This document shows positions 5,832-57,860 of a DNA stretch of 64,000 nt, in pieces. This stretch comes from Candidatus Berkelbacteria bacterium CG10_big_fil_rev_8_21_14_0_10_43_13 (GTDB lineage: Bacteria; Patescibacteriota; UBA1384; XYA2-FULL-43-10; 1-14-0-10-43-13), in NCBI GenBank assembly GCA_002773985.1, contig PEZW01000018.1, forward strand, positions 34,240 to 98,239, given 5' to 3'. The translations under genes were made by a program, and so were the position numbers. The notes under the pieces are model-generated. The model ran no database searches and was not told where the DNA came from. It saw only the letters and a program-made list of their open reading frames with translations. The stretch's first letter is position 1. Every line of letters starts with the position of its first letter.

Positions 5832-5864
5832 AAAAAAACGGCTTACACCGTTTAATTTTGGTGG
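5832..5864. terminator. Bidirectional intrinsic terminator (AAACGG-cttaca-CCGTTT flanked by an A-run and a T-run) carrying a tRNA-CCA-end remnant (TGGTGG). Left copy of a 32-bp direct repeat.
   Basis: Hairpin 5836-5853 with a T-run after it and an A-run before it. The 32 nt at 5833-5864 are identical to 10322-10353. Confidence 0.55.
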
Positions 5865-6046
5865 TGTGTTTTAAATGAAGCTCGAACTTTTTTCGAACAA
5901 AATATTAAATAAATATTTTGGTTCCAATTTTGTAATGACCCGCTCGCGCTTCGCTCCCTAAATGTTGCAATGCGGTTCGGGCAAAAAGGAAGGGGTGTAG
6001 GGAGGGAATTTTTGCCCGATAACAGGTGGGGCGAGGGGGAGAAAAA

Positions 6047-7063
6047 TTAGTGACTTATCGGCAATTGCGGAAGTTCCTTTGCTTCGGCAATCATGCTGTT
6101 TCCAGTGATTATTTTACCTATTTCCATTCTAACAGTTTGTACATTATTGTGAATAGTGCAGTATATTTTATATCTATCCATCCAATTCTTATTATGATCT
6201 TTGATTTCCAAAAGCATCAAATTATATGCATCCTCTGCCTTACTCATTGCGTCTGACATATGAATTCTGAACTCACCTGTTTGCATATATTTTAGAATAG
6301 CTTTACCCTTTTCTTCTAACTTGTCTTTGGTCAGTTTTAATTTGTGCATTTCTAAAAGCGCGTTTCTAAGTAAAAAGGCAATATCAAGTAGGCCCATGGG
6401 GTCAATAATGATGATATCGTCTTCAATGAAAAATTTTGACTTTCCTTCTTTAATAGCATGAGTTACGATCACGGCATAATTCGCTTTTGCTTCTTCCTGA
6501 TGCCTTTTTACCTCATTGATAAATGAATTTTGATATGTCGCAGTCTTCTTGCATTCATACAAAATGCTACCAATATTCTCACCGTTATTTTTGATATATT
6601 GGATCGCATCACCTTTTTTTCCCGTTGGCCTAATCTCATCCTCAGGAAAGTTTTCCGTCAATAATTTAATAACTTCTTTTTCATAATCAAAACCAGCTGT
6701 TTGTGGAGTTCGTCCCTCTTTGAGTTGTTTCTCAAGAAGTGCGATTTTACCATTCGATACTTGTATTGCTTTCGCTTGGTTTTCGATTAATTTGCTCATC
6801 TTTTCTCTTTCGCGTTTTTCCTTTTCGACTCCTTGTTTAACACCGGATTCAAGCGCGAGTTTAGACATCTTTTTTAAATCGATTTTGTGCTTAGATTCCA
6901 AATCTAACTTTTCTTTTTTAGCTTTTTCAAGCTGTTTTTGGTTTTCCTTAATTTGTTTTTGCTGATCTTCCCACTGACCAACTATGGAAATCCATTTTTC
7001 CTTTGTCAAAATACTTTTGCACAAAGGACATAAAAAATCATTTTGCTGTTCGATGTTACTCAT
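6047..7063 (-). CDS. Zn-ribbon/coiled-coil protein with a C-terminal PD-(D/E)XK-like nuclease motif (DUF2130/RmuC-like)
   Basis: N-terminal CPLC..(C) ribbon, a long Lys/Glu-rich coiled coil, and a C-terminal GDAIQYI...ILYECKKT (D..ExK-like) block. The family assignment is by recollection of architecture, not a database hit. Confidence 0.45.
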   Translation of the reverse strand: MSNIEQQNDFLCPLCKSILTKEKWISIVGQWEDQQKQIKENQKQLEKAKKEKLDLESKHKIDLKKMSKLALESGVKQGVEKEKREREKMSKLIENQAKAIQVSNGKIALLEKQLKEGRTPQTAGFDYEKEVIKLLTENFPEDEIRPTGKKGDAIQYIKNNGENIGSILYECKKTATYQNSFINEVKRHQEEAKANYAVIVTHAIKEGKSKFFIEDDIIIIDPMGLLDIAFLLRNALLEMHKLKLTKDKLEEKGKAILKYMQTGEFRIHMSDAMSKAEDAYNLMLLEIKDHNKNWMDRYKIYCTIHNNVQTVRMEIGKIITGNSMIAEAKELPQLPISH

Positions 7064-7105
7064 AGTTTCCTCAATTCATTATTTAAGACCGTCCCTGTGC
7101 TTAAT

Positions 7106-7279
7106 CTAGTTTTTGGTTTTATCGACCAAAACATATACCTGACCTGCCTTTGGAGTGGGTGGAAGCGGCTCGCCCGTTACTACGGTGCGTTCCTTTCCGG
7201 TTTCTCCCCCTCTCGGACCAATAATTTCGTATTGGCCAGAGCGGGTGGCAGTTTGGCCGGGTTTGAAAGTCTGTTTCAT
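7106..7279 (-). CDS. YjzC-like small protein (57 aa; absent from the ORF track)
   Basis: Translation MKQTFKPGQTATRSGQYEIIGPRGGETGKERTVVTGEPLPPTPKAGQVYVLVDKTKN, with a GGAGG Shine-Dalgarno 5 nt upstream of the ATG. The FKPG...G.Y...G..G pattern recalls the Bacillus YjzC family. Confidence 0.55.
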   Translation of the reverse strand: MKQTFKPGQTATRSGQYEIIGPRGGETGKERTVVTGEPLPPTPKAGQVYVLVDKTKN

Positions 7280-7392
7280 GAGACCTCCAGTTTATTAATT
7301 AGGCAAGTTCGACATTCTTACCTGCTGATTTGCAGCCAGTCGTCATCTGCTCGCAGAGGTAAACAGGGGCGGTCTTACTAATTGTCAGGCCA

Positions 7393-7422
7393 CTTGACAC
7401 TTTCCAAACGTTTTCGATATAC
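7393..7422 (+). promoter_or_regulatory. Putative sigma70-like promoter for the LexA-MTase gene (TTGACA-18-TATACT)
   Basis: TTGACA at 7393-7398 and TATACT at 7417-7422, upstream of the AAGAGGA RBS and the ATG at 7468. A TTCGA...TCGAA inverted repeat overlaps the -10. Confidence 0.3.
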
Positions 7423-7467
7423 TTAAAATGTAATCGAAAATAAATCGAAAGTCAAGAGGACAATCAA

Positions 7468-9022: not shown

Positions 9023-9877
9023 TTATTTTAGTCCAGATATTTTTCTAATCTGAATTAGGCGATTATCAAGCTTCTCTGCCTTAATAAGTAACTCAATTGC
9101 TTTTTCTTTAGTTAGTGATGAAATTTCAGAAATTTTATTCTCGATATAAGCTATCTCTTCTTTCGCCATTCTTGTTAGCGCCACCTGCTCAACTTTTTTA
9201 AATCTACATAATTCTTTATTCGAAATCGAGAGAATTTTACAGATGGAGCTATCAATGGCTTTCCAATATAAGCTAGCATCTTTCTCCCCTTTGAGCTTTT
9301 CTCCTGATAGCCACAATCCCTTGTAGTCTAAGTTACCGCAATTGGGGCTAGACAATATGCAATATAAATGAATATATGAAAACAAAGTAACATTTTTTGC
9401 TGTTGCTTGTCTGTATATTTGACTACTATTTTTTGGGTACTGATACAGCGGCGATACAAGGCAAGCAAAGTCTTTATCTTTTTTCCATTTATCCAATGCT
9501 TCTACTTTAAAATCTTTTTGATTCTTTGCGGTTCTGCTTAATCTAAATAATTTAGCATCAGCGACTATTGTATAGTTTTTTGTTTCACCCTCAACATCTG
9601 CAGAGTCTGCTCTTTCTTTCAAGACTTTTGCGTTTAAACCCATAAATGAAAGCGCCCTCGCTAATAAAACATCAGAATACTTGGAGTATATTTTTTCCTC
9701 AGTCGAATCGTGTGAAAATGACTCAGGAATAATACCGCACTCAAGAAGATGAAGCATAACTTCTTCTTTGGTAAACTTCTCGACTATTGAGATTATCCTT
9801 TCACTATACTCAGTAAAAGAAAGTGGCTCATCAGAAATTTTAGAAATAAAATTTATAATTTCAATTCTTTTCATCAA
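9023..9877 (-). CDS. Type II restriction endonuclease, HindIII-like (PD-(D/E)XK)
   Basis: The block ADVEGET...YTIVADAKLFRLSRTAKNQKDFKVEALDKWKKDKDFACLVSPLYQYPKNSSQIY matches my recollection of the R.HindIII catalytic region (D..D-A-K). It overlaps the C-protein gene by 17 nt, which is characteristic of C-R operons. Confidence 0.6.
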   Translation of the reverse strand: MMKRIEIINFISKISDEPLSFTEYSERIISIVEKFTKEEVMLHLLECGIIPESFSHDSTEEKIYSKYSDVLLARALSFMGLNAKVLKERADSADVEGETKNYTIVADAKLFRLSRTAKNQKDFKVEALDKWKKDKDFACLVSPLYQYPKNSSQIYRQATAKNVTLFSYIHLYCILSSPNCGNLDYKGLWLSGEKLKGEKDASLYWKAIDSSICKILSISNKELCRFKKVEQVALTRMAKEEIAYIENKISEISSLTKEKAIELLIKAEKLDNRLIQIRKISGLK

Positions 9878-10079
9878 AAAGATCCTTTATATTTAATTTA
9901 AGAGATTTAGAAATTTTTTCAATATTCTCCAAGGTTATATTCTTCTCCGCTCTCTCAATCATCCCGATGTAAGTCCGGTGAACACCAGCAAAACCGGCAA
10001 GCTGCTCTTGCGATAGACCTTTCTTCAATCTTTCTTCGCGAACTTTGTCGCCAAATTTTTTTAGAATTTCTTTTTTCAT
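9861..10079 (-). CDS. Controller (C) protein of the R-M system (XRE-family HTH, 72 aa)
   Basis: Small HTH_3 protein (LSQEQLAGFAGVHRTYIGMIERAEKNITLENIEKIS). Its stop overlaps the REase start, and tandem palindromic boxes lie immediately upstream. Confidence 0.7.
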   Translation of the reverse strand: MKKEILKKFGDKVREERLKKGLSQEQLAGFAGVHRTYIGMIERAEKNITLENIEKISKSLKLNIKDLFDEKN

Positions 10080-10140: not shown

Positions 10141-10321
10141 AGATAAACAAAAGGGGTTTCACTGTCTTTCGCGCGGCGGGAGGGAGGGCAAGTGAAAGTA
10201 AATAATCCGCCCCGCCCACAAAAAGCCCTACTTCGCTGAAGCTACGAAGGAGGCGCCGAGAGCGTGCGCATTCCCTCCCCATACCCCTCATTGCTCACAC
10301 CGAATAAAATTTAGAGCAAAT

Positions 10322-10353
10322 AAAAAACGGCTTACACCGTTTAATTTTGGTGG
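10322..10353. terminator. Bidirectional intrinsic terminator plus the CCA end of the adjacent tRNA-like fragment. Right copy of the 32-bp direct repeat.
   Basis: Identical to 5833-5864. Hairpin AAACGG/CCGTTT with flanking A-run and T-run. Confidence 0.55.
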
Positions 10354-10400
10354 ACCCTAGGAGACTCGAACTCCTGACCTAGCCGATAGATCGGCTCGCG
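10348..10400 (-). pseudogene. Truncated tRNA-like 3' fragment (anticodon arm with a 6-nt loop, T arm AGGAG-TTCGAGT-CTCCT, acceptor 3' strand, ACCA). There is no 5' acceptor or D arm.
   Basis: The reverse complement reads ...AGCCGATCTATCGGCTAGGTCAGGAGTTCGAGTCTCCTAGGGTCCACCA. No complementary 5' acceptor strand (AGGGTCC complement) exists upstream. Confidence 0.45.
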
Positions 10401-10414
10401 AATTTGTTTTTATT

Positions 10415-10491
10415 TGGTGGACCTGACCGGGCTTGAACCGGTGACCTCCTCGCTGCCAGCGAGGCGCTCTAGCCAACTGAGCTACAGGCCC
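10415..10491 (-). tRNA. tRNA-Ala (anticodon GGC), CCA encoded
   Basis: Hand-folded cloverleaf: acceptor GGGCCTG/CAGGTCC with the G3:U70 Ala identity pair, anticodon stem CCTCG/CGAGG, loop CUGGCAG, T arm ACCGG-TTCAAGC-CCGGT. Confidence 0.9.
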
Positions 10492-57633: not shown

Positions 57634-57860
57634 GATTATATTAGCGTTTTTCAATTTTTTGTCAATCTTATTAAAAGTTTTCCACAGGCCTTTGTTTGAC
57701 TTTTGTTTGGGTTATGTTCGATAATGTATAAGTAAACAGACCGAACACAATCGGATTTCAATTCTACCGACACTAAATATTAATCCGCATTTGTATGTTT
57801 GTATTAGATTTGTCCCCCAAAGGGGGATCTCCCCTTGGGATGATAATTTGTAGATATCTT

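Follow-up and report, generated by a model that had tools for sequence, protein, structure and literature searches.

A 64,000-nucleotide stretch of contig PEZW01000018.1 from Candidatus Berkelbacteria bacterium CG10_big_fil_rev_8_21_14_0_10_43_13, referred to below as the window, carries a two-gene operon for a YjzC-like protein of 57 residues and a DUF2130 protein of 338 residues. The operon lies back to back with a gene for a LexA repressor fused to the DNA methyltransferase (MTase) of a restriction-modification (R-M) system. In our judgement the chances are about even that this operon is cargo controlled through a LexA operator, and that it supplies a damage-inducible accessory nuclease that backs up R-M. 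An earlier reading made from the sequence alone (the sequence-only reading) had reported both open reading frames (ORFs), which are present exactly as it gave them, and had suggested that they are accessory defence or DNA-processing genes neighbouring an R-M system. That suggestion is supported by association, as described below, and the LexA fusion of the neighbouring methyltransferase is a feature absent from the earlier reading.

The regulatory argument begins in the 188 bp between yjzC and the lexA-MTase gene, where a promoter scan locates two back-to-back promoter-like sites (Table 1). The spacer of the predicted yjzC promoter is filled by a perfect period-11 direct repeat, TTTCGATTTATTTTCGA (7450-7434, no mismatches to the motif), and the spacer of the lexA-MTase promoter, which is the best-scoring site of the control region, holds a degenerate version, TTTCCA-N5-TTTCGA (7401-7417). 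Among related LexA-MTase genes, 62 of 72 distinct upstream regions contain the TTTCGA repeat in one or the other orientation, and the other 10 have a close variant; the controls gave none in 69 coding regions and 0.07 per set of shuffles. A related locus from another Berkelbacteria genome (L128) keeps the same back-to-back promoter layout. We regard the repeat as a putative LexA operator. PMC7739468 cites patescibacterial LexA as binding a direct repeat (reference 52 therein). Loci L125-L127, which represent another LexA clade (stand-alone, 208 residues, with R-M genes downstream), carry the period-11 repeat ACCTAAA-N4-ACCTAAA by the -10 element; because this repeat differs, the operator sequence appears to vary among LexA clades while the direct-repeat design is kept. 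As a separate observation, many related promoters (L045-L122, L125-L127) have TGTGGATAAC, the reverse of the DnaA-box consensus TTATCCACA, directly upstream of the -35 element and operator; the window's own lexA-MTase promoter lacks TGTGGATAAC.

The protein presumed to act at these sites is well supported as a fusion. Its LexA part matches TIGR00498 with 183 bits against a cut-off of 111 and includes both the LexA winged helix and the S24 domain, and its MTase part matches PF01555 (1.7e-44). The A83-G84 cleavage site and the S118/K156 dyad are invariant in 12 fusion proteins, and from these residues the fused LexA is apparently complete and cleavable. The 514-residue protein is 100% identical to a Berkelbacteria database entry, and its architecture is common in bacteria of the candidate phyla radiation (CPR), where it forms at least 25 protein clusters. 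The best 80 loci of a LexA-anchored metagenome search were examined: the LexA reading frame is 440-640 residues long in 68 of them, and where a locus is truncated by the end of a contig, the MTase can in most cases still be seen. Across the 80 loci the LexA part is 55-64% identical and the attached MTase usually 22-49% (74% in L082). Because the LexA part is the better conserved of the two, these values suggest that the methyltransferase module has been exchanged behind a conserved LexA. Our literature searches found no paper on LexA-methyltransferase fusions. In one other protein (P0280, 382 residues), the LexA portion is limited to the DNA-binding domain, with the S24 cleavage domain missing, and is joined to an MTase of this type. 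Given that the window also encodes an ordinary, stand-alone LexA, the islet LexA is a supplementary copy carried along with the R-M genes. The promoter of the stand-alone gene (about 57695-57730) has a different period-11 repeat in its spacer, TGTTTG-N5-TGTTCG, a difference in sequence that hints that this small genome runs two LexA circuits insulated from each other.

The position occupied by yjzC and DUF2130 is a variable one. In 45 other LexA-MTase loci, a gene on the opposite strand starts approximately 80-110 nt upstream, and it is different almost every time. Family scans of this slot recognize bSEFIR, a CBASS cyclase, an HNH-SAVED effector, Thoeris ThsB (TIR), PsyrT, PD-T7-4, several PADLOC candidate (PDC) families, Schlafen/AlbA_2, an AbiEii-type ATPase, DUF4238 and SEC-C. 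DUF2130 itself reappears there in L084, behind a 98-residue GIY-YIG leader, and in L128/L129, behind a YjzC gene 89% identical to that of the window. In L128/L129, the restriction enzyme that accompanies the facing LexA-MTase is of another kind (MamI type), and next after DUF2130 comes a weak HEPN AbiU2-like gene. The yjzC and DUF2130 genes are tied to defence by their placement behind a LexA-type operator in a hypervariable arm, rather than by mere adjacency to R-M genes. The LexA-methyltransferase fusions that anchor this hypervariable defence slot are the more interesting lead, and are undescribed as far as our searches reach. The 98-residue stand-alone GIY-YIG protein (beginning MPKFSRTQKFTK) takes the leader position of YjzC in L049, L056, L060, L068, L082, L084 and L114, where it is divergent from LexA-MTase and precedes a DUF2130, CD-NTase-like or Schlafen/AlbA_2 gene.

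The 338-residue protein matches the Pfam family DUF2130 (PF09903) over model positions 4-246 of 255 (E = 5.6e-23; 82 bits, where the cut-off is 26.7). PMC3424549 places this family among the PD-(D/E)XK proteins and gives no DUF2130 / COG4487 member a known function. In an alignment of 34 homologs that extends down to 22% identity, C12-P13-x-C15, E128, D152 (within GDAIQ), and E170 and K172 (within YECKK) are all invariant, which bears out the D...ExK-like motif picked out by the sequence-only reading. An AlphaFold model built on this alignment, with a predicted local distance difference test (pLDDT) score of 81.8, consists of a short beta-hairpin bearing the CxxC, a single helix (residues 21-116), an alpha/beta core and a C-terminal helical hairpin. 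The predicted core adopts a restriction-endonuclease-like fold, with the alpha-beta-beta-beta-alpha-beta arrangement and the E, D and (D/E)xK residues that define the PD-(D/E)XK superfamily. Judging from motif and model together, DUF2130 is a putative metal-dependent PD-(D/E)XK nuclease.

Other parts of the earlier description of this protein fare less well. The proposed CPLC zinc ribbon is not upheld: the invariant CPxC is a single one, located on a beta-hairpin, and the 34-homolog alignment contains no second conserved Cys/His pair, which leaves a four-ligand ribbon made by a single chain without support. The Lys/Glu coiled coil of about 120 residues survives as a long charged helix (42 of 96 residues are K, E, R or D), shorter than proposed at about 96 residues and with no dominant single heptad register; a coiled coil in this sequence is plausible. 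Finally, the likeness claimed to an RmuC/DUF2130 layout is correct with regard to DUF2130 and finds no sequence support with regard to RmuC. The protein has no Pfam RmuC match at E<=1, and hhalign of the DUF2130 family alignment against E. coli RmuC returned a probability of 0.4%, which is a weak test given the single template sequence. Searches of NCBIfam, PADLOC (E<=1), PHROGs and the sequences of solved structures (PDB) likewise produced no match, and no housekeeping family, which the sequence-only reading had named as part of the outcome that would speak against it, was matched. The window protein falls in a compact CPR clade of about 335-345 residues, which is 50-69% identical across candidate phyla and forms a single cluster at 50%. 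These proteins share the CxxC start, long helix, E..D..ExK core and C-terminal helices of distant members, but the helix is shorter than in typical members of 390-450 residues.

The sequence-only reading had proposed looking for homologs beside R-M or other defence genes in other genomes, and in the sampled loci such co-occurrence is found. Close CPR homologs of DUF2130 lie at the 3' end of, or beside, unrelated R-M or defence-like genes in nearly all contexts retrieved; these counts describe a sample of loci, without a background rate. Examples include a type I/IIG-like system in which lexA is followed by MTase/Eco57I, DUF4145, an S subunit and DUF2130 (L001), an HSDR_N_2 gene (L007), NmeDI_C with a 1520-residue SF1 helicase (L009/L016), Dcm with Vsr (L012), and an MTase-NmeDI_C fusion with HEPN and Phd (L014). 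In L029, DUF2130 is divergent from a LexA-Vsr-Dcm operon. Among distant members, an N6/N4 MTase lies directly upstream in 3 of 14 loci (L031, L035, L039), a Chryseobacterium plasmid has DUF2130 between a helicase gene and hsdM-hsdS, and on a Bradyrhizobium plasmid it adjoins a TIR gene. Several phyla are represented among the unrelated R-M operons that have DUF2130 at their 3' end. Thus, in the sampled loci of unrelated genomes, defence-gene neighbours recur for DUF2130 and, as described below, for YjzC. The family is sporadic, with 2122 clusters among 1.84 billion representatives and 18 matching loci in a pattern-limited scan of 185,579 species genomes, and it is nearly absent from phage collections.

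The 57-residue protein was described by the sequence-only reading as YjzC-like and preceded by a perfect GGAGG ribosome-binding site (RBS), and both statements hold. The GGAGG lies 4 nt ahead of the ATG (AAACTGGAGGTCTCATG on the minus strand). The score against Pfam YjzC (PF14168) is 22.4 bits, just under the 25-bit cut-off. Despite this, the protein can be counted as a member of the family because it matches phrog_3202 at 2e-14 and because homologs at 70-81% identity are annotated with PF14168 or, by NCBI, as 'YjzC family protein'. A total of 691 homologs were found, and 23 of the 57 positions are invariant among CPR bacteria, Microbulbifer and Vibrio (Gammaproteobacteria), and Tsukamurella (Actinobacteria), with identity across phyla of about 75%. 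AlphaFold2 predicts a small protein built entirely of beta structure (pLDDT 86), for which no structural match was significant, and no match was obtained in NCBIfam, PADLOC (E<=1) or a sequence search of solved structures. We read yjzC and DUF2130 as a single operon because the two ORFs are separated by a 42-nt gap with a GAGGAA RBS and no terminator. Terminator-like hairpins follow the DUF2130 gene on the minus strand at 5898-5880 and 5853-5836. The first of these (CTCGAAC-TTTTTT-CGAAC) was considered as a Gram-positive-type LexA box and is better read as a terminator of this operon.

The leader of yjzC (approximately 140 nt) was compared with those of L125-L128, L130 and L131. A short hairpin, GGYRAG...CTYGYC, is kept around a conserved GTCGAAC (about 7290-7345, minus strand) that lies approximately 25 nt ahead of the yjzC ribosome site. 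One compensatory pair change distinguishes Berkelbacteria from Nealsonbacteria, and a similar hairpin is present in Microbulbifer, in what is a comparison of few sequences. Rfam contains no RNA family that matches the control region or the leader, and the folding energy of the leader is no better than that of shuffled sequence.

In look-ups anchored on YjzC, its gene comes first beyond a damage-type repressor, which is either LexA or a helix-turn-helix (HTH) protein with an M78 peptidase, and varied partners follow. These arrangements include LexA and R-M genes facing YjzC followed by CD-NTase and Cap15, LexA facing YjzC followed by a SEC-C protein, and, on a Microbulbifer island, an HTH and M78 peptidase pair facing YjzC followed by DUF1173. 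At one locus YjzC is followed by a TIR protein. Among the other contexts, YjzC stands beside DUF2130 only in L128/L129, and the conserved pairing expected of a type II toxin-antitoxin system is not seen. YjzC is therefore a frequent but optional companion, with no dedicated DUF2130 partnership.

With these observations in mind, we propose that a small mobile R-M islet carries the yjzC-DUF2130 operon as its exchangeable cargo arm. LexA-MTase would repress its own gene and the divergent operon via the TTTCGA repeats in both promoters, until DNA damage, or breaks that result from infection or restriction, led to RecA-stimulated self-cleavage at Ala83-Gly84. Both promoters would then be released and DUF2130 would be made. 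Probably held as dimers or higher assemblies by the long helix and the CxxC knuckle, DUF2130 would serve behind R-M as a second-line effector with nucleic acid as its target. YjzC, a small, highly conserved beta protein whose gene leads such cassettes, may have the role of a modulator or adaptor. A more general version for CPR bacteria, which we put forward tentatively and with more doubt than confidence, is that LexA-MTase is a damage switch that couples restriction or breakage to a hypervariable effector slot, with DUF2130 as a hitherto unrecognised nuclease effector and YjzC as a common leader or adaptor that works on a universal cellular target.

Several observations weigh against this proposal. 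The CPR clade of DUF2130 is unusually conserved for a defence gene, several loci of the family have no obvious defence neighbour (L028, a Mesorhizobium plasmid), and neither DUF2130 nor YjzC matches any PADLOC 2.0 model, Shedu included, at E<=1. YjzC occurs in none of the 80 LexA-MTase loci of the LexA-anchored search, and thus it is not obligate to the module; its gene mostly stands alone in prophage-like contigs, close to terminase genes. The LexA operator of L125-L127 differs, with no second copy evident near yjzC, and the stand-alone LexA within the window may be the one that binds at some of these sites. The conservation of the clade and the absence of DUF2130 from PADLOC also fit the main rival explanation, in which DUF2130 is an SOS-type nuclease of repair or recombination, similar to RmuC, that processes or limits breaks (including those of self-restriction) instead of attacking invaders. 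The same can be said of its repeated adjacency to lexA (in the window, L001, L029, L084 and L128), the LexA-type operator motif in the yjzC-DUF2130 promoter, and the succession of long helix and PD-(D/E)XK domain that recalls RmuC. However, no sequence link joins DUF2130 to RmuC, and a very patchy gene found on plasmids and islets does not resemble a core repair gene. The slot is filled elsewhere by CBASS, TIR, SEFIR and HEPN effectors, and in L128 the gene after DUF2130 is the weak HEPN AbiU2-like one. We consider the repair function unlikely.

The gene order also brings to mind a toxin-antitoxin-like addiction pair that stabilizes the islet, wherein the nuclease is the toxin and the mini-protein restrains it. 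A small upstream gene is indeed followed by a nuclease gene in one operon, the pairing recurs in the second Berkelbacteria genome with a different R-M system (L128), and a YjzC-like gene, Rv1954A, heads the higB-higA-Rv1957 operon of M. tuberculosis (PMC3912914). Nevertheless, tblastn indicates that most DUF2130 genes have no YjzC neighbour, and YjzC often stands alone or precedes unrelated partners (CD-NTase, SEC-C, TIR, DUF1173); its identity of about 75% across phyla is more readily expected of a protein with a conserved cellular target than of a dedicated antitoxin. An addiction role seems very improbable to us on these grounds. Much the same low probability attaches to the view that both genes are passengers at a tRNA-linked hot spot with no functional tie to R-M or LexA. 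Att-like repeats do flank the islet at a tRNA site, and defence-island surroundings also gather unrelated mobile genes. Against mere passage, many unrelated genomes show the association again, with R-M systems of different types, the operator motif lies inside the yjzC promoter itself, and the back-to-back promoters are maintained in L128.

Known systems resemble parts of the damage-inducible cargo arm proposed here. Shedu (SduA, DUF4263) is a stand-alone effector with a restriction-endonuclease fold and an N-terminal non-catalytic region, and is found in defence islands; DUF2130 is alike in its stand-alone nuclease-fold layout and belongs to a different Pfam family. In CapH/CapP of CBASS and in HTH and M78 pairs of the ImmR/ImmA type, which put defence cassettes under DNA-damage-responsive control, a cleavable repressor is divergent from a defence operon. 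At the YjzC locus of Microbulbifer, the HTH and M78 pair occupies exactly that position, whereas the window has in this role a true LexA of the self-cleaving S24 kind, joined to an R-M methyltransferase. RmuC (PF02646), which limits recombination in E. coli, has a long helical region ahead of its PD-(D/E)XK domain, as does DUF2130. It is listed in the PD-(D/E)XK superfamily (PMC3424549), but E. coli rmuC is chromosomal, between udp and ubiE, and DUF2130 is on an islet. PrrC and RloC are latent anticodon nucleases, accessory enzymes that are genetically tied to R-M and act as a back-up under restriction challenge; RloC, which reacts to DNA breaks, bears a CxxC zinc hook on its coiled coil (PMC2610378, PMC3458546, PMC3874168). 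They differ from DUF2130 in having ABC-ATPase and tRNase domains and no PD-(D/E)XK domain, and they are regulated at the protein level, with no LexA operator; the likeness is confined to the logic.

To our knowledge, the self-repressing methyltransferases described so far bind DNA through a simple HTH region. The window fusion, which shares with them the use of a modification enzyme as a regulator, differs in that it includes a complete LexA, with cleavage site and dyad, and in that the putative operator is also present in the divergent cargo promoter. Repression by methyltransferases of their own R-M promoters, by which the modification enzyme doubles as a regulator, is treated in PMC3874152 in connection with the antitoxin as a regulator. 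For YjzC, the nearest parallel is again the M. tuberculosis higB-higA-Rv1957 (higBA-chaperone) operon, in which the YjzC-like gene comes first in a toxic-effector operon that also has a damage-inducible promoter. This promoter, P1, is downstream of Rv1954A, and P2, ahead of Rv1954A, is repressed by HigA (PMC3912914). In place of DUF2130, the effector there is an RNase toxin.

No function has been assigned to DUF2130 or YjzC, both of them widespread families, and this locus and its relatives place them in a defined, testable setting between a damage-type repressor and exchangeable immune effectors. If the proposal is correct, the catalogue of bacterial immunity would gain a nuclease effector and a small accessory protein, both of them new, and the LexA-methyltransferase fusion would connect the R-M systems of small-genome CPR bacteria to the SOS signal. 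The combination of LexA-MTase and a direct-repeat operator would then serve as a genomic anchor with which to mine defence genes in lineages that can barely be cultivated or genetically manipulated.

Table 1. Features of the islet and of the remainder of the window, in window coordinates.
Feature	Position	Strand	Details
DUF2130 gene, 338 aa	6047..7063	-	ORF; CPLC knuckle, helix 21-116, PD-(D/E)XK core about 127-241, C-terminal helical hairpin 246-320
yjzC-like gene, 57 aa	7106..7279	-	ORF; first gene of two-gene operon
Predicted lexA-MTase promoter	7394..7423	+	TTGACA, 18-nt spacer, TATACT; 11/12 matches
Predicted yjzC promoter	7427..7455	-	-35 TTGACT 7455-7450, 17-nt spacer, -10 TACATT 7432-7427
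LexA-methyltransferase fusion, 514 aa	7468..9012	+	LexA aa 2-197, N6_N4 MTase aa 218-510
HindIII-family restriction endonuclease	9023..9877	-	PF09518 E 4.8e-72; PADLOC REase_II 2.5e-69; convergent with MTase
C (controller) protein	9861..10079	-	PF01381 6.5e-15; PADLOC Control_protein 1.3e-21; overlaps endonuclease start by 17 nt
Left 32-nt repeat copy	5833..5864		CCACCA and terminator hairpin on minus strand; terminates DUF2130 operon
Right 32-nt repeat copy	10322..10353		Abuts tRNA-like 3' remnant and tRNA-Ala
tRNA-Ala	10415..10491	-	Beside islet
Stand-alone LexA, 201 aa	57861..58466	+	tblastn and Pfam; 47% identical to LexA part of fusion

The repeat-bounded islet that the sequence-only reading described as holding both ORFs together with R-M genes is borne out. 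Perfect 32-nt direct repeats bound 4.5 kb with a G+C content of 0.33-0.40, lower than the 0.40-0.47 of the flanks. Within it lie the yjzC-like and DUF2130 genes, the LexA-methyltransferase fusion, the HindIII-family endonuclease and the C protein; endonuclease, MTase and C protein occur together, as in type II R-M systems with a controller protein. The same arrangement recurs on a 66-kb contig of the same population. Repeats at a tRNA in combination with low G+C content are what marks a site-specific insertion into a site of tRNA type, and the islet itself contains no integrase or transposase. Between tRNA-Ala and the right repeat (about 10350-10414, minus strand) is a tRNA-like 3' remnant with T-arm, acceptor and CCA, for which ARAGORN and Rfam made no call; the 32-nt repeat starts with the CCACCA end of this remnant, as would be expected for an att site. 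Just inside both islet ends are G-rich inverted repeats of 19 nt (5991-6009 and 10270-10288; 89% complementary), which are possibly remnants of terminal inverted repeats. A serine recombinase gene is found near the related locus L128.

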